A stretch of 64,000 nucleotides of DNA, taken from assembly GCA_012842045.1 (NCBI GenBank), contig DUTP01000002.1, forward strand, positions 35,601-99,600, written 5' to 3'. The DNA comes from Candidatus Dojkabacteria bacterium (GTDB lineage: Bacteria; Patescibacteriota; Dojkabacteria; SC72). Position 1 is the first letter of the stretch; the number at the start of each line of letters is the position of its first letter. Positions 36,186 to 63,979 of this stretch are shown here, one piece after another. The translations under genes were made by a program, and so were the position numbers. The notes under the pieces are model-generated. The model did not search any database. It was given only the letters and a program-made list of their open reading frames with translations, and had not been told where the DNA came from.

Positions 36186-36227
36186 GAAGGGTGAATTTTG
36201 ATATTAGAATTAAAGAAAGGTAAGTAT

Positions 36228-39137
36228 ATGTTTAAATTTCTAACAAAACTTTTTGACTCCAATGAGAAACAATTGGCAAAGATTCAACCAATTGTTGATG
36301 AAATCAATTCTTTGGGAGACGATATCTCTAAACTCTCAGATGAAAAGTTGAAAGAGAAGACTAGTCAATTTAGAAAGAAATTGGGTGTTGATTTAGAGAC
36401 ATGTAGGACAGATTTTACAACTCTCTCTGATGAAGAATTGAATAAAAGGTTGGATAATGAGAAGGAGAAGTTGTATGAGATTCTTCCTGAAGCATTTGCT
36501 GTTGCTAGAGAAGCGTCTAGCAGGGTTGCTAATCACAAACATTTTGATGTTCAAGTTATGGCTGGCTATGTCTTGTTTGATAACAAAGTAGCAGAGCTGT
36601 TCACAGGTGAGGGTAAAACATTAGCAGCAAACCTACCTTTGTATCTCTATGCCCTTACAGGTAGAGGAGCTCATTTAGTTACAGTAAACGACTATCTTGC
36701 ACGAAGAGATGCTGAATGGACCGGCCATATTATGAACTCTTTAGGTATTACTGTTGGTGCAATTAACTCTGGTAAACAGTACAGATTTGTTGATGATGAG
36801 GAAGCAATCAAGATTAAGGGAGATGAAGCTAAAGAATTGATTAAGGAGAGGAAACAGAAAGAGAAAGAAGTAGGTAGACTTAAGTATGACCATATGAGTG
36901 GAGTTAATCTTGTTGAGTGTACCAAAGCAGAAACATATGCTTGTGATATTGTTTACGGTACAAACAGTGAGTTTGGTTTTGACTATCTTAGAGATAATAT
37001 GGCAAGAAGTCTTGAGGAAAGAGTACAAGGTCCTAGATATTTTGTAATTGTTGACGAGGCGGACTCAATCTTGATAGATGAAGCACGAACCCCTCTCATT
37101 ATCTCCACAAGTGCTGATACTGCAAATGACCTCTACAAACAGTTTGCATCTTTAGTAAATACTCTTCAGAAAGATGTTCACTACAGTGTTGATGAAAAAG
37201 CGCATGCAGTTTCACTTAATCAAGAAGGTATGGATGCTGTAGAGAAGGCTTTGAAGGTAGATAATGTGTATGAGGATGCACAGTTGGCATATCATTTAGA
37301 TAATGCACTTAAGGCAAAAGAACTGTATCACTTAGATGATGAATATATGATTAGGAACGGTGAAGTTCTCATTGTTGATGAATTTACAGGTCGAGCTATG
37401 GAGGGAAGAAGATACAGTGAAGGTCTTCATCAAGCGATAGAGGCTAAGGAAGGTGTAGAGGTAAAGAAGGAGTCTAAAACAATGGCTACGATTACCTTAC
37501 AGAACTTCTTTAGACTATACAAATTCCTCTCTGGTATGACAGGTACAGCTATTACAGAAGCAGAGGAGTTTTCTCAAATATACAATCTTGATACCATTGT
37601 TGTTCCTACCAACCAACCAGTTGTTAGACAAGATTACAATGATGTTGTTTACAGAACTCAGGAGGGAAAGTTTAGAGCAATAATTAGGGAGATAATTGAA
37701 CATCACAAGAAAGGACAACCAATACTTGTTGGTACTACATCTGTTGAGAAATCTGAAGTTCTTTCAGATATGCTAAAGAAAGAAGGTATTAAGCACAATG
37801 TTCTTAATGCAAAACAACATGAATTAGAAGCTAAGATTGTGTCTGAAGCAGGACAACTAGGTGCAGTTACCATTGCAACTAATATGGCTGGTAGAGGTAC
37901 AGATATTGCACTTGGTGAGGGTGTAAAAGAAGTAGGTGGTTTGTATGTAATCGGTTCAGAGAGACATGAATCTAGAAGAATTGATAATCAGTTAAGAGGT
38001 AGGTCTGGTAGACAGGGAGACCCTGGTGAGTCTAAGTTCTTTGTTTCTTTTGAAGACGACCTCATGAGAATTTTTGGTGGAGACAGGATGAAATTAATTA
38101 TGGAACAGGTAGGGCTTGAGGATGATGTAGAGATCTCTGTTGGTTTAATCGGTAAAACAATTGAGAATGCACAGAAGAAGGTTGAGGCCTCAAACTATGA
38201 TATTAGGAAGAGGTTAGTAGAATATGATGATGTTCTTAATCAACAAAGAGAAATAATCTATACCATCAGAAGGAAAACTCTCGAAGCTAAAGCTCAAACT
38301 GGAGTGAAGTTGAGTGAAGAGGATATGAAGAAAGATCTTAAGATGTGTAAGGAGGTCGAGATTGAAAGAGTTCAGGATGGTTTAGATGGTTTTGCTTTAA
38401 ACAGAGAGAGTAGTTGGGAAATTGAAGAACTAAAGAAGTTTAAATTTCCATTTTCTCCTTTAGAGAAATGGATACTTAAAAAAGCATTAGAGTATGTAGA
38501 CTTCTTAACGGCATCATCTCTAGCTGATGATATGGAGATAGATAATATTGAAGAAAGGAAAATCTTCATTGAGATAAATAATCTTCTGACAGACGAGTTT
38601 GTAGAAGCTACATCAATGACACTTGGATACAAGGATAGTATTGATATGTTTAGAGATATGTATGAATTATCTGATGTACAAAGGAGTGCACAGATAAAGA
38701 GGATGGTATTAACAGCATTTGTATTACATCTTTACTCAATCGGTTATGAAGCAGCTGATAATTTGTCTAGGTATTTAGTCCTCCAGTCATATGACAAATT
38801 CTGGATGGAACATCTAGATACAATGACAGATTTGAGAGAGGGTATTTCTTTAAGAAACTTGGCTCAAAAAGATCCTTTAGTAGAGTACAAGAATGAGGGT
38901 TTTGATCTGTTTGATCAGATGTTAAAGAAGGTTGATGAGTTTGTAATTACAAGATTCTTTAAGGTTAGGTTAGTAACAAATGAAGCACAGGTACAACAGA
39001 AGACAAGTAGTGGTGAGGATAATAGGCCTGGTAAGGTAGCTAAACAGAAGACTGTACATAAAGGAAACAAAGTAGGAAGAAATGATCCTTGTCCATGTGG
39101 AAGTGGAAAGAAGTACAAGAAGTGTTGTGGAAGGTGA
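36228..39137 (+). CDS. secA: preprotein translocase ATPase SecA
   Basis: DEAD-like motor motifs (VMAGYVLFD, TGEGKTL, DEADSILIDEARTPLIIS) and the C-terminal zinc finger CPCGSGKKYKKCCG. The ATG at 36228 has a GAAAGG SD. The track start is a TTG. Confidence 0.95.
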   Translation: MFKFLTKLFDSNEKQLAKIQPIVDEINSLGDDISKLSDEKLKEKTSQFRKKLGVDLETCRTDFTTLSDEELNKRLDNEKEKLYEILPEAFAVAREASSRVANHKHFDVQVMAGYVLFDNKVAELFTGEGKTLAANLPLYLYALTGRGAHLVTVNDYLARRDAEWTGHIMNSLGITVGAINSGKQYRFVDDEEAIKIKGDEAKELIKERKQKEKEVGRLKYDHMSGVNLVECTKAETYACDIVYGTNSEFGFDYLRDNMARSLEERVQGPRYFVIVDEADSILIDEARTPLIISTSADTANDLYKQFASLVNTLQKDVHYSVDEKAHAVSLNQEGMDAVEKALKVDNVYEDAQLAYHLDNALKAKELYHLDDEYMIRNGEVLIVDEFTGRAMEGRRYSEGLHQAIEAKEGVEVKKESKTMATITLQNFFRLYKFLSGMTGTAITEAEEFSQIYNLDTIVVPTNQPVVRQDYNDVVYRTQEGKFRAIIREIIEHHKKGQPILVGTTSVEKSEVLSDMLKKEGIKHNVLNAKQHELEAKIVSEAGQLGAVTIATNMAGRGTDIALGEGVKEVGGLYVIGSERHESRRIDNQLRGRSGRQGDPGESKFFVSFEDDLMRIFGGDRMKLIMEQVGLEDDVEISVGLIGKTIENAQKKVEASNYDIRKRLVEYDDVLNQQREIIYTIRRKTLEAKAQTGVKLSEEDMKKDLKMCKEVEIERVQDGLDGFALNRESSWEIEELKKFKFPFSPLEKWILKKALEYVDFLTASSLADDMEIDNIEERKIFIEINNLLTDEFVEATSMTLGYKDSIDMFRDMYELSDVQRSAQIKRMVLTAFVLHLYSIGYEAADNLSRYLVLQSYDKFWMEHLDTMTDLREGISLRNLAQKDPLVEYKNEGFDLFDQMLKKVDEFVITRFFKVRLVTNEAQVQQKTSSGEDNRPGKVAKQKTVHKGNKVGRNDPCPCGSGKKYKKCCGR

Positions 39138-43726: not shown

Positions 43727-43771
43727 TTATACAACAGATGCCTTTACCATTCTTCTAAGGTATAATATCGC

Positions 43772-44953
43772 ATGTATAATCTACACAACAAATTTCCCAA
43801 GGTCGCAGTTGTAGCAGACCAGATGACATCTTTTGGTGGTGCAGATAGGGAGATGTATTCAATGTTGAAAGTATTCCCAGATGCAGATATATATACAGTT
43901 CTTTTCTACAAAGAGAAATATCCAACTCTGAAAAACAAAGTATATACATCATTTGTACAAAAGTGGGTTAAGGTGTTTGGGAAGAAATTCCATAGACATC
44001 TTAAAGTATTAAATCCTTTTGCATATGAAGGATTCGATTTAAGGGGATATGATTTAGTAATTAGTATATCAGCAGGTCCAGCCAAGTCAGTGATTACAGG
44101 AGTAGACCAACCACACCTAGCTATGGTTATGACACCACCTAGAAGTCTTTGGGATAATGAGTTGAATGTAAGGGGTTCTAAACTTAAATGGATTTACAAA
44201 CCTCTTTCCCATATTCTTAACACATACCTAAGAGTTTGGGATGTTAGTATTGCTAAAAGGGTTGACTACTGGAGTGCAAATTCAAAATTTATTGCACAGA
44301 AGATAAAGAAGACATATGGAGTAGATGCACGAGTAATATATCCAGGTGTAGAAGAGAAATATTTTAAACAATTAAAAGAAACGAAGGAAGGTGAAAGATT
44401 AATTAAAGATACAAAGGAGAAATTTTTCATTCCCGATGATTTTGTTCTAGTTGTTTCAAGGCTATATGACTACAAGAGAGTAGATTGGGCAATACGATCA
44501 TGTATTGAAAGCGGAGATAATTTAGTAATTGTAGGTGAAGGTCCAGATAGAAGATATTTAGATAAAGTTGCAAGAGGGTATAAAAACATACAGTTTTTGG
44601 GATTCATTAAGGATGAAGAAGTTCAAGCATTGTACAGTATGGCTAAGGTTTTGCTCTTTTGTGGAATTGAAGATTTTGGTTTAGTACCAGTTGAAGCTAT
44701 GGCAAGTGGAACACCAATATTTGCATACGGTTATGGTGGTGTATTGGAAACTGTTAAGAAGGGTGTAACTGGAGAGTTTTTCATAAACGAAGAAGAATTG
44801 GTACAGTTACTTAAGAATTATAATAAAAGGGGGTATAATGAGAAAGAGATTATAGAGCATGCGCAGACCTTTAATGAAAAGAGTTTCTTAATTAATTTTA
44901 CTAACTACCTTAAAGAAATCTATGAAAAAGAAAGGACAAGGAGACAGGGTTAA
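43772..44953 (+). CDS. GT4-family glycosyltransferase
   Basis: EDFGLVPVEAMASGTPIFAY is the canonical GT4 E-x7-E motif. Confidence 0.8.
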   Translation: MYNLHNKFPKVAVVADQMTSFGGADREMYSMLKVFPDADIYTVLFYKEKYPTLKNKVYTSFVQKWVKVFGKKFHRHLKVLNPFAYEGFDLRGYDLVISISAGPAKSVITGVDQPHLAMVMTPPRSLWDNELNVRGSKLKWIYKPLSHILNTYLRVWDVSIAKRVDYWSANSKFIAQKIKKTYGVDARVIYPGVEEKYFKQLKETKEGERLIKDTKEKFFIPDDFVLVVSRLYDYKRVDWAIRSCIESGDNLVIVGEGPDRRYLDKVARGYKNIQFLGFIKDEEVQALYSMAKVLLFCGIEDFGLVPVEAMASGTPIFAYGYGGVLETVKKGVTGEFFINEEELVQLLKNYNKRGYNEKEIIEHAQTFNEKSFLINFTNYLKEIYEKERTRRQG

Positions 44954-46106
44954 AGATATTAAAGTAGCAGTAGTTTGTGAACCTCTCTACAAATGGGGAG
45001 GAGCAGAACTACACTTGAAGTACATTCTTGAAGCTTTTCCTAATTCAGAACTCTTTACTGCATATTATGATGCAGAACTTGTTAAAAAAGAATTCAAAGG
45101 TATCAAAGTACACCATTCATTTATGCAATACCTTCCTTGGAAGGATAAATTGAGGTATCTCTACCTTCTTCTTAATCCTTTGGCATATAAAAGTTTTAAC
45201 TTTAAAGATTTTGATGTAATTGTTTCTCTCTCATCTCACTTTGCTAAATTTGCACATACAGATGGAGTTCCACATATAGATGATTGTTTAACTCCTCCAA
45301 AATTCTTTTGGCAGAAAGATGATAGGACTCTTAAGAGTAAAGAGCAGATGAGTGGGATAAATAAGGTGCTCTTCTCGATATATTCGTTTTTCATGGATAC
45401 ATTTCTTGAAAGGCTATGGCAAAAGTGGGATAGAAATGCAGCAAGGAAATGTACCAGGATAATTGCTAATTCTAAGGTAGTTAAGAAGAGAATAAAGAAA
45501 TTCTATGGATGTGACTCAGATGTAATATATCCACCTGTTGAAGTTGATAAAATTTTGAAACATCCAAAAGTTAACAGAAAGGAGAATTGGTATCTCTATC
45601 TTGGTCGGGTTGAGAGATACAAAGGAGTACATCTTGCAATTAAAGCTTGTGATAGGTTAGATCTACCACTTAAAATTGCTGGAGCAGGACAGGACTTAGA
45701 AGCTATGAAAGAACTTGTTGATAAATTAGGTGCGAAAGGTATTGTAAAGTTCCTAGGTTTTGTTTCAGAGGAGGAGAAATATGACCTTATGAGTAAAGCC
45801 AGAGCATTGATTCTTCCAATTAGGGGAGAGGATTTTGGTTTGGTACCTGTTGAAGCGAATGCTTTTGGTACACCCGTCATTGCATACAAAGATGGAGGTG
45901 TAATGGAAACAATATCAGAAGAAAATCCTGCAACAGGAGTATTCTTTGAAGAGTACACAGTTGATTCTCTTGTTAAAGTTCTAAAAAACTTCAAGCCAGA
46001 AAAATATACGCAAGATAATTGTAGAAAACAGGCACAAAATTTTGCATCTGAAATATTTGTATACAAGCTACAAAACTATGTCAGGGACACCATACAAAGT
46101 AGTTAA
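44922..46106 (+). CDS. GT4-family glycosyltransferase
   Basis: EDFGLVPVEANAFGTPVIAY. A paralogue of the preceding gene. Confidence 0.8.
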   Translation: MKKKGQGDRVKDIKVAVVCEPLYKWGGAELHLKYILEAFPNSELFTAYYDAELVKKEFKGIKVHHSFMQYLPWKDKLRYLYLLLNPLAYKSFNFKDFDVIVSLSSHFAKFAHTDGVPHIDDCLTPPKFFWQKDDRTLKSKEQMSGINKVLFSIYSFFMDTFLERLWQKWDRNAARKCTRIIANSKVVKKRIKKFYGCDSDVIYPPVEVDKILKHPKVNRKENWYLYLGRVERYKGVHLAIKACDRLDLPLKIAGAGQDLEAMKELVDKLGAKGIVKFLGFVSEEEKYDLMSKARALILPIRGEDFGLVPVEANAFGTPVIAYKDGGVMETISEENPATGVFFEEYTVDSLVKVLKNFKPEKYTQDNCRKQAQNFASEIFVYKLQNYVRDTIQSS

Positions 46107-46734
46107 GAGAGTGTTGGATGTAATTCTGTCCTTTTCTCTTCTAATTCTTTTTTCACCTTTGCTTCTTCTTGTTTCAATATTAATTTTTTTAACTGATGGT
46201 AAGAATATTTTTGTAAAAGAACCTCTTAGACACGGATATGGTGGTAAAGAATTTAGAATGTTTAAGTTTAGAACAATGATTCCTAATGCTCATAGAGAGT
46301 TGTTAGAAAATCCAAAGTACAAGAGATTAAAGGAGAAGTGGAAAAAGAATGGTAACAAACTAAAAGTTGATGAAGATTCTAGAATTACATGGATAGGGAA
46401 GATTCTTAGGAAAACGGATATGGATGAATTACCTCAACTATTGAATGTTTTAATCGGTCAGATGTCTCTTGTTGGTCCTAGACCTACATACAAAACGGAG
46501 ATAGAGGTGCATTTGAAAAAATACCCAAAGGATAAACAACATCTTAAATATGTTTTTAGAGTAAGTCCTGGTATAACTGGTATATGGCAAGTTTCTGGTA
46601 GAAATGATATTTCACTACATAAGAGATTAGCTATGGAAGCAACATATGCAAGAAACTTAAACTTTCTTACAGACTTAAAAATTCTTCTTAAAACGCCTAA
46701 AATTGTGCTAAGTAGGGAGGGGGCATATGAGTAG
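46081..46734 (+). CDS. polyprenyl-phosphate sugar phosphotransferase (bacterial sugar transferase, WbaP/WcaJ C-terminal-domain type)
   Basis: KRVLDVILS...LLLLVSILIF TM helix, then KEFRMFKFRTM ... ELPQLLNVLIGQMSLVGPRP (PF02397 signature). The ATG at 46081 is chosen. The track start 46042 would overlap the upstream gene by 65 nt. Confidence 0.85.
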   Translation, partial: SGTPYKVVKRVLDVILSFSLLILFSPLLLLVSILIFLTDGKNIFVKEPLRHGYGGKEFRMFKFRTMIPNAHRELLENPKYKRLKEKWKKNGNKLKVDEDSRITWIGKILRKTDMDELPQLLNVLIGQMSLVGPRPTYKTEIEVHLKKYPKDKQHLKYVFRVSPGITGIWQVSGRNDISLHKRLAMEATYARNLNFLTDLKILLKTPKIVLSREGAYE

Positions 46735-49776: not shown

Positions 49777-49824
49777 AAATGTATTGAAAAAAACTCTGTT
49801 TATTATTATAATCTCTCTGTTTAT

Positions 49825-49897
49825 GGGTGCATAGCTCAATCGGTAGAGCAAACGACTCTTAATCGTTTGGTTCAGGGTTCGAGTCCCTGTGCACCCA
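49825..49897 (+). tRNA. tRNA-Lys (anticodon CTT)
   Basis: 73-nt cloverleaf. Acceptor GGGTGCA/TGCACCC, D-arm GCTC/GAGC, anticodon stem AACGA/TCGTT with loop CTCTTAA, T-arm CAGGG-TTCGAGT-CCCTG, discriminator A. CCA is not encoded. Confidence 0.9.
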
Positions 49898-49969
49898 TTT
49901 CTTGTAATAGTAATATTCAAAAGTCTTTCATTCTCTGGTCTTTGCAGTTATCCCTTACTATAATTAAGA

Positions 49970-54217: not shown

Positions 54218-55210
54218 ATGAAAGAAGAAAGTAATAATACAAAGAAACTTTCTTTAGATAAAAAGCAGATAATTCTGCTTGTTTTCTTAATATTTCTCAT
54301 CCTTATCTTCTCTGTCTTTCTCTATGTAAGAAAGAATAGAAATAGTGATACAAAACAGGATCAAGGAGAAGAGAAGATTGTTTCAGAATTAGAAGATGAA
54401 GAAGATTTAGGTGAGTCATTAGAGGAAGAGAATGTAGAAGAGGATATAGAAGAATCAACACCAGAATCAAGTAAATCAACAACACCATCTAAACCATCAG
54501 AATCTAAAGAACCTAAAAAGCCAGTTGAAGAAAAAACTCCAGAGAAACCAGATCCACCCAAGCCTCTCACTCCACGAGAGCAAGTTGAAAGTTTATGGAC
54601 TCCTGATGCTACGAGTGTAATTATAGATTCAAAAGAGACCATTACAATTAATGGTACAAAATATTTAACAGTAACAGTAAGAAGGGGAACACTTAAAGTT
54701 GGAGATACTCTTAAACAAACAGGTATTTGTGGGATAGTACCTGATGTCTCAACCAAAGTAAGGAGAATGATTAAGGCAGGAAAGTTGGTAAATTCTGCAA
54801 CTGTGTCAGAGTCAGTTGGTATTGCTATGGATAATGATTATTTCTACAAACGAGCAACCTTTGGTACAGATATGCAATTAGCTACTAAAGTAAAACTTAA
54901 AGTATATGTATTTACTAAGGAAGAAGGAAACTCGAAAGAACAATCTGTTGTAAATAATCAAGGTTATCTTCTTTCTTTCGTACCTGAAGACCCTTCGGGT
55001 AGAACCTTCATAACAGGAAACGGTACTCCTGTAATATCACAACCTATTAAACCTGGAGAAGTTGCAGAGATAGAGGTAAAGAAATTTATAATGCTTGGAG
55101 GTCCTGCTTTGTATGAACCAGGAACAAGAATAAAAGTTAAAGATCAGAATACTAATGAGCAGATAGGTATTGCAGTTATTACTGGATATCCACCATGTCC
55201 ACATAAATAG
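54218..55210 (+). CDS. membrane-anchored extracytoplasmic protein with an acidic/proline-rich linker
   Basis: N-terminal TM helix, an E/D/S/P-rich low-complexity linker, then a 200-aa globular domain. No family recognised. Confidence 0.55.
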   Translation: MKEESNNTKKLSLDKKQIILLVFLIFLILIFSVFLYVRKNRNSDTKQDQGEEKIVSELEDEEDLGESLEEENVEEDIEESTPESSKSTTPSKPSESKEPKKPVEEKTPEKPDPPKPLTPREQVESLWTPDATSVIIDSKETITINGTKYLTVTVRRGTLKVGDTLKQTGICGIVPDVSTKVRRMIKAGKLVNSATVSESVGIAMDNDYFYKRATFGTDMQLATKVKLKVYVFTKEEGNSKEQSVVNNQGYLLSFVPEDPSGRTFITGNGTPVISQPIKPGEVAEIEVKKFIMLGGPALYEPGTRIKVKDQNTNEQIGIAVITGYPPCPHK

Positions 55211-55250: not shown

Positions 55251-55691
55251 TTACTTAGCAACCCAAAAAGTTACCTGTCCTATCTTTGTATTAGGATATA
55301 TCTTAACTGGTTGTACTACATGAATTGTTAGAGTAGGTCTCTGTATAGAACCAAGATCTATTAAATCAGCAGTAATATTTACAAAGATACCCAGTCTACC
55401 TGTGGATGACCTACCTTTGATAATGGGAACAAAGTGGTTACTACCAATTTTCTCTTTAGTCTTACCAATATATATTTTCTTGGGACTAAGTATTAAACCA
55501 CTAGGAGGTATCTTTATCTCCTCAAGAGGGTTTTCTTCAGTAGGATCTAATATATTCTTCTTGTATGTGTAGAGAGTATTATCAATATGAAAATCATATG
55601 AATTAGTCTCAACATCCTCAATGTTAAAAGGATCTATGATAATCCTTCCTTTTTTAACCTCTTTTTGTATCTCTTTACCTGTTAATATCAT
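55251..55691 (-). CDS. dCTP deaminase / dUTPase family protein (archaeal DCD-DUT type), copy 2
   Basis: MILTGKEIQKEVKKGRIIIDPF ... NSYDFHI ... GRSSTGRLGIFV ... KIGQVTFW parallels M. jannaschii DCD-DUT motifs (MILSDKDI...KRIIIKPF...SYDV...GRSSLGR...RIGQLIF). Confidence 0.8.
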   Translation of the reverse strand: MILTGKEIQKEVKKGRIIIDPFNIEDVETNSYDFHIDNTLYTYKKNILDPTEENPLEEIKIPPSGLILSPKKIYIGKTKEKIGSNHFVPIIKGRSSTGRLGIFVNITADLIDLGSIQRPTLTIHVVQPVKIYPNTKIGQVTFWVAK

Positions 55692-56203
55692 TTTTCGTTA
55701 TATAGTTGACTAGGATATGGTTCATTCTGCTCAGCATAGAACTCTGTTTTTTGTATATCAATATCTCCTTTTGGTATCCAGAATGTAACCTGTCCTACCT
55801 TCATATTAGGATATATTCTTAATCTTTGCACTACCTTTATTTCTAATGTCCATTTATGAGCTTTACCTAATTGTCCTAGATCTGCTGTAATTTGAAGAAA
55901 CATACCTAATTTAGCAATACTGTTTCTTCCTATGAGAGATGTTACAAACTTCTTACTTCCAATCTTTTCAACAGTTGTACCAAGATAGAGTTTGTTTGGT
56001 TCTAAAACAAATCCTCTTTTTGGTATAGTGAACTCCTTTATCTTAGGTTTTTTTCTTTTATCACCAACATCTTTTATCTCAATTAGTGTTGGACTTAGGG
56101 AGTATATATAGCTGTTAGGTTTGATGTTTTTTCTACTAAAAGGAGTTATTGTAATATTTCCTTTTTTTACTTCTTTTTCTATCTCTTTGGCAGTTAGTAT
56201 CAT
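55688..56203 (-). CDS. dCTP deaminase / dUTPase family protein, copy 1 (tandem paralogue)
   Basis: MILTAKEIEKEVKKGNITITPF ... NSYIYSL ... GRNSIAKLGMFL ... KVGQVTFW. Overlaps copy 2 by 4 nt (ATGA). Confidence 0.8.
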   Translation of the reverse strand: MILTAKEIEKEVKKGNITITPFSRKNIKPNSYIYSLSPTLIEIKDVGDKRKKPKIKEFTIPKRGFVLEPNKLYLGTTVEKIGSKKFVTSLIGRNSIAKLGMFLQITADLGQLGKAHKWTLEIKVVQRLRIYPNMKVGQVTFWIPKGDIDIQKTEFYAEQNEPYPSQLYNEK

Positions 56204-56263: not shown

Positions 56264-56755
56264 TTACTCTAACGGAATTCCTTTTTCTAAATCAATCAAC
56301 TTCTTCTTTATCTCAACTCCTCCTTTGTAACCAATCATTGCACCTGTTGTTGCTATTACTCTATGACATGGTATGAGAATAGGGAGAGGATTACGATTAC
56401 ATACCATACCTACAGCTCTGTATGCTTTTGGATTATTTACTTTCCTAGCGATATCTTTGTATGTAATTGTTTTGCCATATGGAATCTTTTTTAATATTTT
56501 CATTATCCTTGAGAAGAATGAAGATGCAGAGGTGTAGTATATATCAATATCAAAGGTTTTTCTTTTTCCATCTAGATATTCATTAATCTGTTTGATAGTT
56601 TTCTTTTTGAGAGGGGTATCTTTCTCTGTCCATGATGGATCATATCTTTCACCATCAAAAACTACTGCTATTACTTTCTCATTCTTTTCACCTATACCTA
56701 TCTTTCCAACCTTAGTATCATAGAAATATATTGTTACCATACTATATTGTAGCAT
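56264..56755 (-). CDS. ogt: methylated-DNA--protein-cysteine methyltransferase (Ogt/MGMT)
   Basis: Active-site motif PCHRVI and a helix-turn-helix region (ITYKDIARKVNNPKAYRAVG). Confidence 0.85.
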   Translation of the reverse strand: MLQYSMVTIYFYDTKVGKIGIGEKNEKVIAVVFDGERYDPSWTEKDTPLKKKTIKQINEYLDGKRKTFDIDIYYTSASSFFSRIMKILKKIPYGKTITYKDIARKVNNPKAYRAVGMVCNRNPLPILIPCHRVIATTGAMIGYKGGVEIKKKLIDLEKGIPLE

Positions 56756-57284: not shown

Positions 57285-57402
57285 TTGTTGGCGTTAATTT
57301 TCTGGTTATATTGAAATAATATATGGAGAGCGGAGGTTGAGACCCTACTTTTTATAGGAACTGTAGTGTTGTTCAGGAGTAGATTGCTATATATATACAA
57401 AA

Positions 57403-57411
57403 TGGTATAAT
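57403..57411 (+). promoter_or_regulatory. extended -10 TGGTATAAT upstream of proS
   Basis: Exact TGnTATAAT, 32 nt upstream of the ATG at 57443. Confidence 0.4.
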
Positions 57412-57442: not shown

Positions 57443-58747
57443 ATGGAATATGAAAGTATAAAGTTTAAGGATGAATACGAGGGTAATAGTATTGAAACAT
57501 TCAAAGATGTCAGCTCAGAACATGAAGCCTTAAATGCTAGACTCCTTATACAAGCGGGTTTTATTAATCAAGAATTAGCAGGAGTTTATTCATATACTAG
57601 GTTGGGTTATGAAGTATTGAACAATATTGAGGAAATAACAAGGAGTCATATGAGAAAGGTTGGTAATGAAGTGCTTCTTCCAGCCTTACAACCTGTTGAT
57701 AATTGGAAAATAACTGACAGACTTGATACTGTCAGCTCTCTTTTTGAAGCTCGTGGTGCAAATAGTCTTTCAAGAGAAAACAACCCTAGTAGGTATATTT
57801 TAGGTCCAACACACGAAGAGATAATTACACCTCTTGCTAAGAAATATATTAAGAGTTATAGAGATTTCCCTGTTAGTTTCTTTCAATTCCAAACCAAATT
57901 TAGAAATGAAGCAAGACCAAAGTCAGGATTATTAAGAGGTCGAGAATTTCTTATGAAAGATATGTATTCCTTTCATCCAGATAAAGAAGATATGGAAGAG
58001 TTCTATGACAGGGTTAAGAACGAATATACTGAATTATTTAAGGATTTAGGAATAGGTGATGATACATTCTTTACTTATGCATCGGGTGGAGATTTTACAG
58101 ATGGTTTCTCTCATGAGTTTCAAACGTTACTACCAAATGGTGAAGATATGATTTATATAGATAGAGAGAAAAATGTTGCTTATAATGAAGAAATAGCAAC
58201 CCCAGAAAACGAAAAAAGATTAGGTGTAAGCTTTCAAAATTTAGAGAAAGTTCCTGCTTGCGAGGTAGCTAATATTTTCCCACTTAACCTCAAATACTCA
58301 AAACCTTTTAATTTGACTTATACAGATAAGGATGGAACTGTAAAACCAGTCTATATGGGGTGTTATGGTATAGGAATATCAAGGTTAATGGGTGTAATTG
58401 CTGAGAAGTTTGCTGATGAGAAAGGTTTAGTTTGGCCGGAAAATGTTGCCCCTGCAAAATTTCATATTGTTACTTTAGCAAACAAAGAGGATGAGGAATC
58501 CTATCTTCTTTCACAGAAGCTCTTTGATTTAATAGGTAGTGATGCCTTGTGGGATAGAAGGAATAGAGTTAGTGCAGGAGAAAAATTAAGAGATGCTGAT
58601 TTAATAGGTTGTCCGTATAAAGTAATTATCTCAAATAGAAGTATAAGTAATAAGGGGGTAGAAGTTCAGAAAAGATCTACAGGTGAAAAGTTTTATATGT
58701 CTATAGGTGAGTTAATAGATAATTTTGGAGGTCCTAGACGATTTTAG
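57443..58747 (+). CDS. proS: prolyl-tRNA synthetase, short form lacking the INS editing domain
   Basis: Class II motif 2 FRNEARPKSGLLRGREFLMKDMYSFH and motif 3 GCYGIGISRLMGV. 434 aa. Confidence 0.85.
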   Translation: MEYESIKFKDEYEGNSIETFKDVSSEHEALNARLLIQAGFINQELAGVYSYTRLGYEVLNNIEEITRSHMRKVGNEVLLPALQPVDNWKITDRLDTVSSLFEARGANSLSRENNPSRYILGPTHEEIITPLAKKYIKSYRDFPVSFFQFQTKFRNEARPKSGLLRGREFLMKDMYSFHPDKEDMEEFYDRVKNEYTELFKDLGIGDDTFFTYASGGDFTDGFSHEFQTLLPNGEDMIYIDREKNVAYNEEIATPENEKRLGVSFQNLEKVPACEVANIFPLNLKYSKPFNLTYTDKDGTVKPVYMGCYGIGISRLMGVIAEKFADEKGLVWPENVAPAKFHIVTLANKEDEESYLLSQKLFDLIGSDALWDRRNRVSAGEKLRDADLIGCPYKVIISNRSISNKGVEVQKRSTGEKFYMSIGELIDNFGGPRRF

Positions 58748-58766: not shown

Positions 58767-59981
58767 TTGAAGTTGCTAAAGTTTGAACTTACAGAAAAGG
58801 ATAGAGAACGTTATGAATCTCGTGTGCGAAGAATAAAAAAAGCAGGATATTTCTTTCAGATAGAAGACTTAGAAACGTTAACTGAGGTAGATACAGAGCA
58901 TCTTACTATATGGGGTCGAGTTTTGCGATTAAGGAAATTAAAGACCAAGTTATTGGTAGATTTTTTATCAAATGGCTTAATTAGAGTACTTATTGTAACT
59001 GGTTCGAGGAGGAAAATCTTTGAAAAATTAATCAGAATATATGATTATTTGTGTATAATAGGGGTGGAAAAGGACAATGAAGACATAATAGTCAAAAGCT
59101 TCACAGTAGTGTCTCCTTGTGCAATTTCTGTTAATACAAATGAGATTAAATACCTACATCAAAGACTTATATCTAATTGTTCAGATATGAGGATTCTTAA
59201 GCAATATTCGGATTGGTTTTATAAAATCTCAAAATTGATGAGAAAGAATGGGTTTATGGAAGTTCGTACACCTACATTACTGAAAACTTTCTATGCTGGT
59301 AATGCTAGACCTTTTGTAACTTATTCTAATAACTTCCACAAAAATCTATATTTAAAATTCTCATCGGAACCTTTATTAAAAGAGATTTTAGCAGGAGGTG
59401 CAGATAAGGTATATGAGTTTAGTTCTGTTTTTAGAAATGAAGCAGACAGCAAAAATAAAAATTATGAATTTAAAGTTTTAGAGTTTTGTACTTCTAATGA
59501 AAGTCTTGCTCAAACGAGAACTTATTTAGAAGAAATAGTATATTTGTTCCTCGGAATTAAAAATATTCCAGAGATAGATTTTAGAGCTTTATGTGATGGA
59601 AAAAGAATTAGGAATAAGTTTAAATATTTCAAAAAGACTATTGTTCCTAGTCTTCAAGAACCAGTCTTTGTAACACATATTCCTTCTGGGCAATCTCCAT
59701 TTATAGCAGAATGTAAAGAGGACCAACTGTATTCTGAGAGACAGTTTCTGGTTATTAATGGTATGACAATATCAGAGATTTATCAAAACGAAAGAGATCC
59801 TTTTAAACAATTAGATTTTTTGAAAAAACAGTTCCTTAAAGAACGTGATTATAAAATAGATTATTCCTCGTATATTCATTCTCAGCTTGTAGGTAGTCCT
59901 ATTATTAATATGTGTTTTATCTCTATTAATAGATTGATTATGGTTGCTACAGGGCAAGAAGATTGTCGCAGTATGATATAA
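58767..59981 (+). CDS. divergent class IIb lysyl-tRNA-synthetase-like protein (short, 404 aa)
   Basis: N-terminal LysRS-like OB region (DRERYESRVRRIKKAGYFF ... LTIWGRVLRLRKLKTKLLVDF). Motif 1 FMEVRTPTL and motif 2 FRNEADSKNKNYEFKVLEF are present. Motif 3 is degenerate: CFISINRLIMV where GlGiGiDRLvM is expected. TTG start. Confidence 0.6.
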   Translation: MKLLKFELTEKDRERYESRVRRIKKAGYFFQIEDLETLTEVDTEHLTIWGRVLRLRKLKTKLLVDFLSNGLIRVLIVTGSRRKIFEKLIRIYDYLCIIGVEKDNEDIIVKSFTVVSPCAISVNTNEIKYLHQRLISNCSDMRILKQYSDWFYKISKLMRKNGFMEVRTPTLLKTFYAGNARPFVTYSNNFHKNLYLKFSSEPLLKEILAGGADKVYEFSSVFRNEADSKNKNYEFKVLEFCTSNESLAQTRTYLEEIVYLFLGIKNIPEIDFRALCDGKRIRNKFKYFKKTIVPSLQEPVFVTHIPSGQSPFIAECKEDQLYSERQFLVINGMTISEIYQNERDPFKQLDFLKKQFLKERDYKIDYSSYIHSQLVGSPIINMCFISINRLIMVATGQEDCRSMI

Positions 59982-60012: not shown

Positions 60013-60576
60013 ATGAAGAAGTTAGATTTTATCCTCATAGGGGTAATTGCAGGTTTAACTGCAGTATTAGATTATATTGGAGTCATAGGGCTTCCAACTG
60101 GAGTGTTTAGTATATCTACACTGTATATAGGTGGGGCATTTTATACTCTTTTTGGTTTGTGGTTTAGAAAAGATGCTTATATAGGAATGTATCTTGGTTT
60201 GTTGCTAGGAGCTGTTATAAGTGGGACATTTACTCCATATGCTTTTCTTTTAGCTTGGGGAAATGTTTTGGGTGTATTAGTTGTAGTTGCAGGTTTTAAG
60301 TACATAAAAGCACTTGACTATCGATTGGTAAAATATTATGACTATATTGCATTTGTTCTTCTAGTGTTTCTTGGGCAAATAGTATCGTCTAACTATACTA
60401 TTAGAGGTTTAAACTTCTTTGGACTAATTCCAGATGTCGCTGTTGTGCCTTCTATAACTAGTTGGATTATTGGAGGTATGATTGTTAACATTGTAATTGC
60501 AATACCTCTATTAAAAATCTTAACACCTATTGTTGAGAGTAAAATCCTAAAGAAATATGATGTTGACAAAAAGTGA
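60013..60576 (+). CDS. 6-TM small membrane protein, candidate ECF-transporter substrate-specific (S) component
   Basis: 187 aa with about 6 hydrophobic helices. Sits upstream of T-component-like and A-A' ATPase genes. Family not identified. Confidence 0.45.
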   Translation: MKKLDFILIGVIAGLTAVLDYIGVIGLPTGVFSISTLYIGGAFYTLFGLWFRKDAYIGMYLGLLLGAVISGTFTPYAFLLAWGNVLGVLVVVAGFKYIKALDYRLVKYYDYIAFVLLVFLGQIVSSNYTIRGLNFFGLIPDVAVVPSITSWIIGGMIVNIVIAIPLLKILTPIVESKILKKYDVDKK

Positions 60577-61378
60577 TTATTTAAATGAAGGTCTTGTTCA
60601 TCTAGTTTATAAAAAAGGGAATTCTGTTTTTAAAGTTCCGAAAGACAACTTTGTAACGTTTAATAGTAAAGAACATTTTGAAATAGAAAAGACATCTTTG
60701 GATATCTTACGAAATCATGGATTTCCTGCAGTACGAGTTAGAAAAATATATGAAAAAGGAGAATTGGTTCCTTCTAAGTATGTTTTAGAAGAAGATTATC
60801 TGAGTGGAATTGTAAAGGATAATAAGGATATAAGTCTAACAGAGAGAAGAAGTATTGTTGACATAATGCTAGGAATCAATCAAATAAAAATTCCTAGATT
60901 TGGCTCTATAACAAAAGAAGGGGTTGGTATAAATGCTTCTTGGAGGGAATTTTTAGAGAATATTATATGCGATAATACTGAAATATTGGTCAGTTATCTT
61001 AGCGATAAAAAAATGAGGGATATACTTAATACTCTTCATGATTTTTTAAATGATGTTCCTCAGCTAATTCAGGGATATTTTTTGCTTTTAGACACAAACT
61101 CTAATAATTTTATATTTAATGAACAAGGTGATATTATAGGACTAATAGATGTGGATCACCCAGCAAGTGGTGATCGGCTTTATGATTATGCAGCTTTAGA
61201 ATGGTTTCACCCAATTTCCTTCTCTGTACTAGAAGAATTAATTAAATTTAAGGACTATGAAAGAGAATTAATGTATTATTATTCTTTATTATTTGGGATA
61301 TCTACACTAAAGTTTGAAATAGTTAATAATCTAAATACTAAAGAGACAATGATGAAATTGTATGCAAAATCTATATAA
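60557..61378 (+). CDS. APH/choline-kinase-family small-molecule kinase
   Basis: Catalytic-loop-like LLLDTNSNNFIFN and the IDVDHPASGDRLYDYAAL (DxD...D) activation segment, typical of the phosphotransferase enzyme family. Confidence 0.65.
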   Translation: MMLTKSDYLNEGLVHLVYKKGNSVFKVPKDNFVTFNSKEHFEIEKTSLDILRNHGFPAVRVRKIYEKGELVPSKYVLEEDYLSGIVKDNKDISLTERRSIVDIMLGINQIKIPRFGSITKEGVGINASWREFLENIICDNTEILVSYLSDKKMRDILNTLHDFLNDVPQLIQGYFLLLDTNSNNFIFNEQGDIIGLIDVDHPASGDRLYDYAALEWFHPISFSVLEELIKFKDYERELMYYYSLLFGISTLKFEIVNNLNTKETMMKLYAKSI

Positions 61379-62042
61379 GTACAAAACATTCTTATATTAT
61401 TTCCCAGCAGATAGCTTTGTTTGGAAGATTAATCCTTTGTTTAAACTCTTTGTGTACTTGTTTATAAATATAATAGTGCTTATAAGTCATTTTTACTTAT
61501 TAAATCTTTTCCTATCAATATTAATATTGATATTACTTGTGCTTATAGGTTTCTTTAATTATAGGAAGATACTTTTCAGGACTTTGACAATTTCTTTAAT
61601 TTTATTTTTCCTCTTGTCGCTCTTTTTCCAATTATTAACCTATCGAAACAATGGTATTACAACAGAAGAGTTGTTAACCTCTATAGCTTTTATATTTCCT
61701 TTTCTTAGTAAGTGGTTTTTAATAAATATGTCGGGTTTGTTTCTATTAACCACATTTTCGCAAAGAGAACTAATATGTGTTTTGACTAAATTAAAACTAA
61801 ACTTCAAGTGGCTAATCTCAATAATGGTGGCTTTTAATATGATAGGGAAATTGCTAGAAAGTTTGGATGATATTAATCTAGCATTGCAATCTAGGGGGTT
61901 TAAAGATAAAAAAATAAAGAATGTGTTTCTAAAATTTCGATATATTTTTTCTTCTATGTTGATTGATAATATTGAGTATATTTCATCGTTGAGAGCAACT
62001 TTTATGTTTAATTATGAGGATATAAAAGAGAAATATGAATGA
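61362..62042 (+). CDS. polytopic membrane protein, candidate ECF-transporter T component (EcfT/CbiQ-like)
   Basis: 226 aa with 5-6 TM helices, between the kinase and the double-ATPase gene. Weak family assignment. Confidence 0.45.
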   Translation: MQNLYKYKTFLYYFPADSFVWKINPLFKLFVYLFINIIVLISHFYLLNLFLSILILILLVLIGFFNYRKILFRTLTISLILFFLLSLFFQLLTYRNNGITTEELLTSIAFIFPFLSKWFLINMSGLFLLTTFSQRELICVLTKLKLNFKWLISIMVAFNMIGKLLESLDDINLALQSRGFKDKKIKNVFLKFRYIFSSMLIDNIEYISSLRATFMFNYEDIKEKYE

Positions 62043-63309
62043 TATTTTGAAGGTAAGTATAAGGGAATTTTCGTATCCTGAAAGTAGCAAGACTATTTTA
62101 TCGAATATTGAGTTAGAGTTTAAAAAGGGTGAGATTATTCTTCTTCAAGGGTCTGTAGGATCTGGAAAGACTACATTTCTAAAATTAATTTCTGGGATTA
62201 TTCCTAATTTTGAATTTGGAGAATTAGAAGGTTCTATAGTTTTGGGTAATAAGGAGGTTGGAGAGGCCACTTTCTCTTCTTCTGCATATTGTTTTCAGAA
62301 TTCTGACAATCAGGTGATATTTGACAATGTTCAAGAACAATTTTTGCAAAATTCTAAAGCAAAGTTTTTTCAAAAATATGGAATTGATAAGTTATTGGAT
62401 AAATCTCTAGCTGATTTATCTAAAGGACAGAGAAAATTTATAACATTGCTTAGTACTATTTCTAAGAAGAAGGATTTATATGTTTTTGATGAACCAATGG
62501 ATTTATTGGATGAAGCAAAGCAGATTATAATATTGGAAGAACTAAAGAAGTTATCTTCTGATTCCATAATTGTTATTTCTTCACATAATACATCAGTTGC
62601 GAAAATAGCAACAAGAATTTTAACTTTAAGGGAGGGAAATTTATACGATACAACTTCTAAATCTATTAAACAAGTCTTTAATAAGTATCGCAGGATCTCA
62701 AGAAAGTTTAGTAATAAAGAGATTTTTCATTGTGAAGATATATCTTTTCTGTATCAGGACGCATTTATTGCAATGAAGTTTCCTTCTTTGAAAATAAGGA
62801 ATAATGATATCATAGGCTTAATAGGTATTAATGGTGGTGGGAAAACAACATACCTTAAATTAATATCTGGGGTAATAGAACCAACTTTTGGTCGAATACA
62901 AAACAGGGCGTTTGAACGATTTGGTTTCTTAACCCAAGATCCTGATAAACAGCTTTTTGGAAATACAGTATATGAAGAATTGTTTATCGGTATAGACAAG
63001 ATATCAGTGGAGCATATAAAGAAAGCTCAATATTACCTAAAATGTACAAAATTAAGTGCTTGTAAAAAGCAGCATCCGATATTCCTAAGTGGGGGACAAA
63101 AGCAAATACTTGTGTTTATATCGTTGTTAATGCATGAACCAGAAATCTTATTTCTTGATGAATTTACAAGAAATTTAGATATTAATAGTGTGAATATTAT
63201 TCTTTCGCTTATAGAAGAATACAGGAAAAATCGCGATTTAGCTGTTGTATTTACAGATCAGGTTGATGAGTATCTTACATTATTATGTGATAAGGTTATT
63301 AAAATATAA
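62035..63309 (+). CDS. fused tandem ABC ATPase (EcfA-EcfA'-like duplicated nucleotide-binding domains)
   Basis: Two sets of motifs: GSVGSGKTT / LSKGQRKFITLL / LYVFDEPMDLLD, and GINGGGKTT / LSGGQKQILVFISLL / ILFLDEFTRNLD. Confidence 0.8.
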   Translation: MNDILKVSIREFSYPESSKTILSNIELEFKKGEIILLQGSVGSGKTTFLKLISGIIPNFEFGELEGSIVLGNKEVGEATFSSSAYCFQNSDNQVIFDNVQEQFLQNSKAKFFQKYGIDKLLDKSLADLSKGQRKFITLLSTISKKKDLYVFDEPMDLLDEAKQIIILEELKKLSSDSIIVISSHNTSVAKIATRILTLREGNLYDTTSKSIKQVFNKYRRISRKFSNKEIFHCEDISFLYQDAFIAMKFPSLKIRNNDIIGLIGINGGGKTTYLKLISGVIEPTFGRIQNRAFERFGFLTQDPDKQLFGNTVYEELFIGIDKISVEHIKKAQYYLKCTKLSACKKQHPIFLSGGQKQILVFISLLMHEPEILFLDEFTRNLDINSVNIILSLIEEYRKNRDLAVVFTDQVDEYLTLLCDKVIKI

Positions 63310-63448: not shown

Positions 63449-63979
63449 ATGAGAATAATATTACTATCAGGACAAAATATCTCTAACAAAGAATGGATAG
63501 AGATTGTAGAGAAGAAATTCCAAGAGAAATTTTTTAATACGAAAATATCTTACTATACCCATTGGGAAAAAGAAGAGAAAGAAGCAGATATTGAATTAGA
63601 AACTAAGAAGTTTTTAGATATTGTAAACAGTTCTGATGAAGAATATATTCTTTTTGCTAAATCAATAGGTAGTATTATATTTCTCAACTCACTAAAGGAT
63701 TTAGAAAAGAAACCAAAAGGTGTATTAATTGTAGGTATGGCTTACAACTTGGGTAAGAAACTTAATTATGATTTTACTGATTTAGAGAAATATACTTCAT
63801 ACCCTGTTAATGTATATCAGAAAGAATTTGATCCAGCTGGTTTTTATGATGAAGTGAGAAATGTTAATGGTGGTAATGTTACTGTAAACAAGTATGAATG
63901 TGTAGGGGAGGAGGACAATAATCATAGGTATGAAAACTATGATTATCTTCTTGAGCTTCTAAATGGTTTAGTGAAGTAA
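63449..63979 (+). CDS. small alpha/beta-hydrolase-like protein (RBBP9/YdeN-type serine hydrolase candidate)
   Basis: MRIILLSGQN start and an AKSIGS nucleophile-elbow-like motif. 176 aa. Weak. Confidence 0.4.
   Translation: MRIILLSGQNISNKEWIEIVEKKFQEKFFNTKISYYTHWEKEEKEADIELETKKFLDIVNSSDEEYILFAKSIGSIIFLNSLKDLEKKPKGVLIVGMAYNLGKKLNYDFTDLEKYTSYPVNVYQKEFDPAGFYDEVRNVNGGNVTVNKYECVGEEDNNHRYENYDYLLELLNGLVK

Follow-up and report, generated by a model that had tools for sequence, protein, structure and literature searches.

What is a gene that resembles the one for lysyl-tRNA synthetase (LysRS) doing among the genes of a membrane transporter, and can its product still do what a LysRS does? The question is raised by a 64,000-nucleotide stretch of a Candidatus Dojkabacteria genome (assembly GCA_012842045.1, contig DUTP01000002.1; "the window", below), in which a LysRS-like protein is encoded between proS, the gene for prolyl-tRNA synthetase (ProRS), and a set of genes resembling those of an energy-coupling factor (ECF) transporter. 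The original prediction, made from the sequence of the window, was of a short class II synthetase with a degenerate motif 3, heading an operon with an ECF-type transporter; the observation itself, of a degenerate LysRS-like synthetase beside an ECF-type transporter, is confirmed. The interpretation favored here, which we regard as somewhat probable, is that the protein is a neofunctionalized paralogue of class II LysRS rather than a housekeeping LysRS, and that it functions as one component of a module whose other parts are a dedicated ECF-type importer and a small-molecule kinase. The argument draws on the loss of catalytic, lysine-binding and anticodon-reading residues, on profile scores far below family cut-offs, on fast evolution and patchy distribution, on a conserved gene order, and on a deep linkage to the transporter.

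A synthetase fold and its altered residues

The gene is an intact open reading frame (ORF) with AGGA, a Shine-Dalgarno-like motif, 9 nt upstream of its TTG start, and its product matches Pfam tRNA-synt_2 (E=4.7e-31); position, start and length of the ORF are as predicted. Scores against curated families are another matter: the NCBIfam LysRS models give 130.3 bits (NF001756; cut-off 468) and 106.2 bits (TIGR00499; cut-off 427.6), and the models for AspRS (44 bits at most) and AsnRS (32 bits at most) also stay below their cut-offs. The adjacent ProRS exceeds its own (TIGR00409, 359.8 bits vs 306.7). An AlphaFold2 model of the LysRS-like protein, built from a 38-sequence alignment (mean pLDDT 77), has an N-terminal helix, then a five-stranded oligonucleotide-binding (OB) domain, then a class II core. 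Foldseek ranks full-length LysRS structures (E ~1e-26) first among its PDB matches, and the top 50 listed are all LysRS. The protein is predicted, then, to keep the whole LysRS fold. The features of the gene that matter for what follows are:

58767-59981, + strand: the LysRS-like gene, subject of the main finding; intact ORF, TTG start, 404 aa
58902-59114, + strand: OB-fold domain, aa 46-116; five strands in the AlphaFold2 secondary structure
59253-59279, + strand: motif 1, FMEVRTPTL
59430-59489, + strand: motif 2 region, FRNEADSKNKNYEFKVLEFC
59745-59792, + strand: strand pair with the Mg2+ and lysine ligands of LysRS; E414 replaced by F327, E421 by T334, N424 by E337, F426 by Y339, E428 by N341
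59907-59939, + strand: degenerate motif 3, NMCFISINRLI; canonical G-G-x-G-x-G-I-D-R reads N-M-C-F-I-S-I-N-R

The three motifs had been located correctly. For a comparison of residues, the window protein and its eight closest relatives (together, the family) were aligned with 29 canonical LysRS and subsequently with about 116 more. Active-site positions are given in E. coli LysU numbering, after the LysU structures.

What is kept is a coherent subset. Motif 2 retains R223 (LysU R262), E225 (E264) and E239 (E278) throughout the family, R389 (R480) of motif 3 is invariant, and the arginine pair of motifs 2 and 3 (R223 and R389) is accordingly present in all members. E201 (E240) is likewise kept in every member; together with E239 it represents the glutamates that hold the α-amino group in LysRS. 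What is lost is the remainder of the site. Both Mg2+-binding carboxylates (E414 and E421; Glu in 28 and 29 of the 29 canonical sequences, respectively) are absent in all nine members. The lysine pocket (Y280, N424 and E428) is replaced by C241, E337 and N341: C241 is invariant in the family, where the canonical enzymes have Tyr in 29/29, and Glu at position 428 is equally universal among them. The replacements at E421 (Thr), N424 (Glu), F426 (Tyr) and E428 (Asn) are also invariant within the family; only E414 gives way to a variable residue, Phe in the window protein and Leu or Ile in its relatives.

Alignment against profiles of LysRS, AsnRS, AspRS and EpmA had been proposed as the way to score the active-site residues, and motif 3 proves to be truly non-canonical, with its Arg kept (N381, M382, F384, S386, N388, R389). 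The family consensus, N-[VIM]-[CS]-F-x-S-x-[DN]-R, fits 9/9 members in place of glycines found in 28-29 of the 29 canonical sequences; the loss of glycines is thus common to the family, but the change of Asp to Asn that was noted with it is private to the window protein, the other eight having Asp. Motifs 1 and 2 had been judged good, which holds for the FRNE of motif 2; it does not hold for the invariant H-N-P-E-F loop, which reads K-N-Y-E-F in the window protein and R-G-E-E-I in most of its relatives (LysU H270 is K231 here and Lys or Arg across the family; F274 is matched by F235 here and by Ile in seven of nine members). In motif 1, the Pro is kept in the window protein and is Lys, Ser or Arg in 8/9 members, and the canonical Glu preceding Thr-Pro is replaced by Arg or Lys. 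That substituted active-site residues should be conserved, and so under constraint, is not what decay produces.

The stacking Phe and the "arginine tweezers" of class II LysRS have been described, as has the class IIb triad that reads anticodon base U35 (R136/F144/Q155 in the human enzyme; PMC11878792). The Arg of this triad is kept, as R56 (58932). The U35-stacking Phe is Leu63 (58953; Ile, Leu or Val across the family) and the Gln is Arg73 (58983; Asp, Glu, Arg or Tyr across the family), each of them being universal in the 29 canonical sequences. The W-G-D segment of the linker, which contacts base 37, is deleted, and pLDDT falls below 50 there. A recognizable LysRS OB region had been claimed: the fold is retained in the predicted structure that was also called for, and the anticodon-reading residues are not. 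The claim that the protein is about 100 residues short and ends right after motif 3 needs a similar adjustment: about 90 residues are indeed missing, but the loss is dispersed along the protein (at the N-terminus, in the linker from OB domain to core, in the motif 2-3 insertion, which is ~50 aa shorter, and in the C-terminal ILFP tail). To judge by these residues, both the way in which lysine is activated and the way in which tRNA-Lys is read appear to be remodelled.

The gene block and its distribution

The LysRS-like gene is the second of a block of six, all on the same strand:

57384-57411, + strand: promoter-like site upstream of proS, TTGCTA-16-TATAAT with a TG extension; a consensus match only
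57443-58747, + strand: proS, short bacterial-type prolyl-tRNA synthetase, 434 aa; TIGR00409 above cut-off
60013-60576, + strand: ECF S-component-like membrane protein, 187 aa; from AlphaFold2 model and PDB matches, with no Pfam or NCBIfam match
60557-61378, + strand: APH-family (aminoglycoside/choline-kinase-like) small-molecule kinase, 273 aa; Pfam APH E=1.4e-4, 22.2 bits vs cut-off 23.2
61362-62042, + strand: EcfT-like transmembrane component, 226 aa; Pfam CbiQ 23.4 bits vs cut-off 25
62035-63309, + strand: fused EcfA-EcfA' double ATPase, 424 aa; two ABC_tran domains, best NCBIfam match ECF_ATPase_1 at 171 bits

Gaps of 19 nt (proS to the LysRS-like gene) and 31 nt (from there to the S-component gene) are followed by four mutually overlapping transporter and kinase genes, so that the description of these genes as co-directional and nearly contiguous is borne out; the linkage to an ECF-type transporter is also upheld by the block as a whole, and is the most informative feature of the locus. 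The promoter-like site is possibly the start of a seven-gene transcription unit, but such sites are no more numerous than expected from shuffled sequence; no terminator-like site was found in any intergenic gap between 57443 and 63309. An Rfam search of the 64 kb detected no T-box or riboswitch upstream of the block and only one RNA gene, for tRNA-Lys(CTT) (49824-49898, + strand), which lies outside the block, 9 kb upstream of the LysRS-like gene.

How good is the case for a transporter? The model of the S-component-like protein (pLDDT 86) reaches TM scores of 0.5-0.6 only with ECF S components in the PDB (YkoE 5edl, BioY 4dve, ThiT 4tkr and RibU), at weak E-values of 0.08-4; its homologues adjoin EcfT and AA' genes at three loci outside the family (L019, L021 and L022, to which we return). 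The EcfT-like protein is homologous to the T parts of L021 and L022, which themselves match CbiQ, and the double ATPase aligns through its two domains with the AA' parts of all three loci, at 28-33% identity. The kinase is 29% identical (E=2e-39) to that of L021, which carries a PF01636 match. By homology, then, the block appears to contain an EcfT of the CbiQ family together with two EcfA-type ATPase domains.

In all family loci seen, the order is proS - LysRS-like - S component - APH-like kinase - EcfT - EcfAA', with proS always directly upstream of the LysRS-like gene. The block is the same in the window and L001, in L003-5, in L016 and in L017/18, where flanking genes vary and the sizes of the products hardly do (ProRS 428-434, LysRS-like protein 401-404, membrane protein 184-187, kinase 273-274, EcfT-like protein 226 and double ATPase 424-438 aa). 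Some copies of the LysRS-like gene are identical at the DNA level (P0001 in the window and L001; P0004 in L003-5). Immediately after the ATPase gene lies an ORF of 176 codons (63449-63979, + strand) with a very weak resemblance (17 bits) to riboflavin kinase/FAD synthetase. An ORF of similar size follows the ATPase gene in L001; because a gene for an HD-domain protein takes its place in L003, it is probably not a member of the conserved block.

The family is small. A word-indexed protein search returned an identical protein in JGI, labelled "lysyl-tRNA synthetase class II", and eight further clusters (363-401 aa, 43-51% identical to the window protein), below which comes a drop in score, 340 to 105 bits, to matches with canonical LysRS (25-28% identity); about 100 columns are invariant across the nine clusters. 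An exhaustive profile search of 1.84 billion representatives returned, besides a fragment, a single cluster at 50% identity, with 712 bits, and nothing else above 180 bits. Family-specific peptide patterns found no member in 185,579 GTDB species genomes (the sole return was a canonical 429-aa LysRS on a 2.6-kb contig); a scan of JGI metagenomes yielded at least one family locus, L016. No member of the family has an NCBI protein record, although neighboring genes do: the adjacent S-component protein has several from Dojkabacteria metagenome-assembled genomes (MAGs), one of them 100% identical and carried on contigs of up to 752,854 bp, the longest in an assembly with locus-tag prefix GX533. The LysRS-like gene may have been annotated as a pseudogene, or not called, in the GenBank records.

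Between the window and L003, identities are 68% for ProRS, 48% for the LysRS-like protein, 80% for the S component (the most conserved of the block), 40% for the kinase, 53% for EcfT and 47% for EcfAA'. The LysRS-like protein thus stands close to EcfT and EcfAA' and below ProRS: it evolves at the pace of the transporter, not at that of a housekeeping synthetase. The ProRS of the window is 52-55% identical to those of Saccharibacteria and Paceibacteria; no canonical LysRS is more than 28% identical to the LysRS-like protein. Clusters number about 36 for ProRS (at 64% identity or more), about 10 for the LysRS-like protein and about 15 for the S component (at 73% or more), and two relatives of the ProRS (74% and 67% identical, on contigs of 134 and 80 kb) have unrelated genes downstream of proS, with no LysRS-like gene or transporter there. 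Such a distribution is suggestive of a block that is accessory, and not of an enzyme that is essential.

Wider relatives and surroundings

Is the family alone? Among the best 150 profile matches, 28 proteins from outside the family depart from the canonical residues in the same places (414, 421, 428 and motif 3), and none of these "odd" proteins reaches any NCBIfam cut-off. They (for example P0249/HBA64357.1, P0284, P0247 and P0242-P0245) share with the family a hydrophobic residue at E414, Glu at N424, replacement of E421 (by Thr, Lys, Gln or Phe) and of E428 (by Ser, Gly or Asn), and a motif 3 with fewer glycines. They differ from it in being only ~27% identical and longer (420-498 aa), and in keeping Y280 and, usually, H270. 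In a neighbor-joining tree (65 sequences, 395 columns, 500 bootstrap replicates) the family is sister to a group A (P0247, P0249, P0258, P0266, P0271, P0280, P0284 and P0357); the sister group consists of odd proteins only in 500/500 replicates. A group B (P0242-P0245, P0250 and P0251) joins next, the family and both groups holding together in 462/500. One cluster of group A includes a protein from a Lachnospiraceae MAG (P0249/HBA64357.1), annotated "hypothetical". Lachnospiraceae normally possess a standard lysS.

Group A has FRNG where the family has FRNE, and a nucleotidyltransferase gene where the family has the kinase gene, but its members adjoin a homologous S/T/AA' ECF module. At L019 the order is S component, NIF3, a 59-aa ORF, fused EcfT-A-A', nucleotidyltransferase, LysRS-like protein and ThrRS; the S component is 34% identical to that of the window (E=1e-27), and the fused T-A-A' aligns over both ATPase domains (28%). 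At L015 an ABC ATPase gene is followed by those for a nucleotidyltransferase and a LysRS-like protein. The nucleotidyltransferase of group A has no homology to the kinase of the window; the two would accordingly be analogous occupants of one slot. Two further modules contain S-component homologues at 52% identity. In L021 (7443-13657) genes for S, a fused T-A-A' and an APH kinase lie beside those for an S66 peptidase, an NDK-like protein and an AspRS-like catalytic core of 311 aa; in L022 (8001-15550) S, T, AA' and a nucleotidyltransferase lie beside a ThrRS-like protein (485 aa, under its cut-off), an S66 peptidase and a degenerate ProRS-like protein of 405 aa. These arrangements indicate a recurrent association, in rearranged contexts and in distant lineages, of this type of transporter with a class II synthetase-like protein and with an enzyme that transfers phosphoryl or nucleotidyl groups.

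Other genes were noted near these modules. In the vicinity of L021 and L022 lie genes for a HIT hydrolase and a SpoT-like HD domain, and an NDK-like domain occurs there either free-standing or fused to the ATPase. The group B protein P0242, a LysRS-like protein of 484 aa that has lost the same carboxylates, is encoded in an apparent biosynthetic cluster (L012, 711-16856) with two sulfatases, several radical-SAM and B12-radical-SAM enzymes, short-chain dehydrogenases/reductases, a methyltransferase and NIF3; a ThrRS gene lies upstream and no transporter is in view.

Elsewhere in the window, two tandem, overlapping dCTP deaminase-like (DCD) genes (55251-56203, - strand; 146 and 171 aa) are followed by an MGMT-like gene (56264-56755, - strand). 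Next to them is encoded a 330-aa protein (54218-55210, + strand) that combines a transmembrane segment at its N-terminus with a long, acidic linker of low complexity, rich in Pro, Glu and Lys; JGI contig L001 departs from the window in its arrangement upstream of the dCTP deaminase genes. A large cell-envelope glycosylation island (~8700-34000 and 43770-46110) encodes several GT2 and GT4 glycosyltransferases, a UDP-glucose dehydrogenase, a protein of the NDP-sugar dehydratase/epimerase family, a nucleotidyl transferase and PMT-like proteins. SecA (36198-39137, TTG start) and CysRS are also encoded in the window, whose gene content is bacterial.

What the protein may do

If the LysRS-like protein is a repurposed paralogue, what might its site be for? 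The residues that would hold an α-amino group and a phosphate or nucleotide are kept and those for Mg-ATP and lysine are lost, which points to a different ligand, and either to ligation by an altered chemistry or to pure binding or sensing. The site would still bind a ligand that resembles an α-amino acid or bears phosphate, or both, but not lysine; the standard Mg-ATP-dependent formation of lysyl-adenylate and the charging of tRNA-Lys would no longer be performed. The compound to be bound, sensed or ligated would be one that enters through the S component and is phosphorylated by the kinase, whose position the nucleotidyltransferase takes in other lineages. As to the two versions of this proposal, that the protein is a ligase and that it is a non-catalytic binder are equally conceivable, and each taken by itself is rather unlikely. 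A more general proposal is that a LysRS-derived clade, hitherto undescribed, and other class II synthetase-like proteins have each been joined to a dedicated ECF importer and to either a kinase or a nucleotidyltransferase in one conserved module, in which the protein, lacking Mg-ATP activation of lysine, acts on the imported and phosphorylated or nucleotidylated compound as ligase or sensor; we consider this quite possible, if not quite probable. The module may extend from bacteria of the candidate phyla radiation (CPR) to a lineage that is possibly of the Firmicutes.

Several considerations weigh against a neofunctionalized paralogue in a transporter module. The grouping of divergent sequences by neighbor-joining could be due to long-branch attraction, and BLAST scores to odd and to canonical proteins differ modestly (150 vs 127 bits). 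For the S component, kinase and EcfT, no match to a curated family exceeds the cut-off. In two relatives the block is missing downstream of proS, which is no proof that their genomes lack the LysRS-like gene. A real synthetase would equally account for the OB domain, for the helix at the N-terminus, for the pair of class II arginines and for the genuine synthetase gene next door; and no canonical LysRS was seen among the scanned ORFs of the 64-kb window, the one part of the genome that was searched, to which neither the GTDB scan nor the JGI metagenome matches listed added any further sequence. Were this the sole LysRS of the genome, it would have to charge tRNA-Lys.

The last points lead directly to the obvious alternative: that this is the genuine and only LysRS of its Dojkabacteria lineage, extremely diverged and shortened in a reduced and fast-evolving CPR genome and lying beside proS as housekeeping synthetase genes tend to cluster. 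Besides the LysRS architecture and the absence of another LysRS from the scanned ORFs, the retention of the motif 2 and 3 arginines, E225, E201 and E239 speaks for it, and canonical LysRS of CPR bacteria are also short (429-456 aa). Yet these short enzymes, unlike the family, retain every canonical residue including GxGxGxDR, whereas here the Mg2+ carboxylates, the ligands of the lysine ε-amino group and two of the three U35-reading residues are gone. The gene evolves like those of the transporter with which it is co-inherited and not like proS, beside which it is missing at two loci in close relatives; and its nearest relatives in the tree are non-canonical as well, one of them coming from a Lachnospiraceae bacterium. 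We judge this alternative to be improbable. That the gene is a decaying pseudogene, as was also suggested, or a spurious ORF has in its favor the degenerate motif 3, the TTG start, the shortness of the protein and the lack of NCBI protein records in a family whose neighboring genes have them. It is contradicted by the intact ORF and its Shine-Dalgarno-like motif, by at least nine clusters of conserved homologues (399-401 aa) with ~100 invariant columns, by substituted residues that are themselves invariant, by a model that is confident over most of the fold and by the conserved gene order; the pattern of conservation is reason enough to reject it as very improbable indeed.

One can also think of the protein as a non-catalytic decoy conferring immunity to antibiotics that mimic aminoacyl-adenylates: it would sequester the mimic without Mg2+, and the kinase or nucleotidyltransferase would inactivate it. 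The alternation of an APH-type kinase with an ANT-like nucleotidyltransferase is suggestive, as both families include antibiotic-modifying enzymes, and related modules contain S66 peptidases and a HIT hydrolase (the S66 family includes MccF, the microcin C immunity enzyme); loss of Mg2+ ligands with retention of the arginines fits binding without catalysis. However, transporters of the ECF type that have an S component take compounds up and do not expel them; the block in the window has no S66 or HIT gene; no antibiotic biosynthesis genes and no matches to resistance models were found, and PADLOC returned no defense-system match beyond a generic ABC ATPase similarity. A decoy for LysRS inhibitors should, moreover, retain the lysine pocket, which is changed here. 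This proposal strikes us as more doubtful still than that of a sole, diverged LysRS.

How does a repurposed paralogue, the reading we prefer, compare with known systems? BirA (with BioY) and ligases of the LplA type are class II synthetase-fold enzymes that attach a compound imported through an ECF S component to a macromolecule. The analogy has its limits: they are not class IIb, have no OB domain, act on known substrates and targets, and are not known to be related to the LysRS-like protein in sequence beyond the core fold. With class II LysRS (LysS/LysU; TIGR00499, NF001756) the protein shares domain order, fold, FRNE, the motif 2 and 3 arginines and the α-amino-binding glutamates; it differs in scoring at less than a third of the family cut-offs and in having lost the carboxylates for Mg2+, the ligands of the lysine side chain, the glycines of motif 3 and both the U35-stacking Phe and its Gln partner, while its motif 2-3 insertion is ~50 aa shorter and its C-terminal tail is missing. 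EpmA (PoxA/GenX), the β-lysine ligase of EF-P, is a LysRS paralogue that has left translation and is the best-known precedent for repurposing of the fold (PMC9437257); it had been named in the original prediction as a model for this protein. A repurposed paralogue is indeed what the evidence best supports, but the identification with EpmA is rejected: EpmA has ~325 aa and no OB domain, the LysRS-like protein scores 71.5 and 59.2 bits against the two EpmA models (cut-offs 264 and 286.9) and has lost the canonical active-site residues of LysRS, and the six-gene block contains neither epmB nor efp. LysX is rejected as well (92.9 bits vs 742; no fused MprF domain). HisZ and SLIMP are synthetase folds with regulatory or binding roles and without aminoacylation (PMC9437257); unlike the protein described here, which keeps the class II arginine pair, they are not derived from LysRS and have no known link to a transporter. 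The duplicates and paralogues of LysRS listed in a 2022 review are LysU, PoxA/EpmA and LysX only (PMC9437257); an earlier survey found class II LysRS paralogues to be frequent, with no such group characterized (PMC5388404), and our literature searches found no description of a LysRS-like gene or family linked to an ECF transporter.

Synthetase paralogues have repeatedly been found to run unexpected chemistry (EpmA on EF-P, HisZ, AsnA, the amino-acid:carrier-protein ligases). The present family would be a fourth kind of LysRS paralogue, combining a full-length fold with a conserved, rebuilt pocket and a genetic tie to a specific ECF importer in very distant lineages. A practical caution concerns annotation: the label "lysyl-tRNA synthetase class II" could mask a real gap, or a second enzyme, in the synthetase inventories of reduced genomes. 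If the wider module is real, it would represent a new pathway of salvage, modification or immunity based on the synthetase fold; and if the LysRS-like protein has been put to use as proposed, it would offer a handle on a pathway of uptake and processing in CPR bacteria, whose metabolism relies on scavenging.

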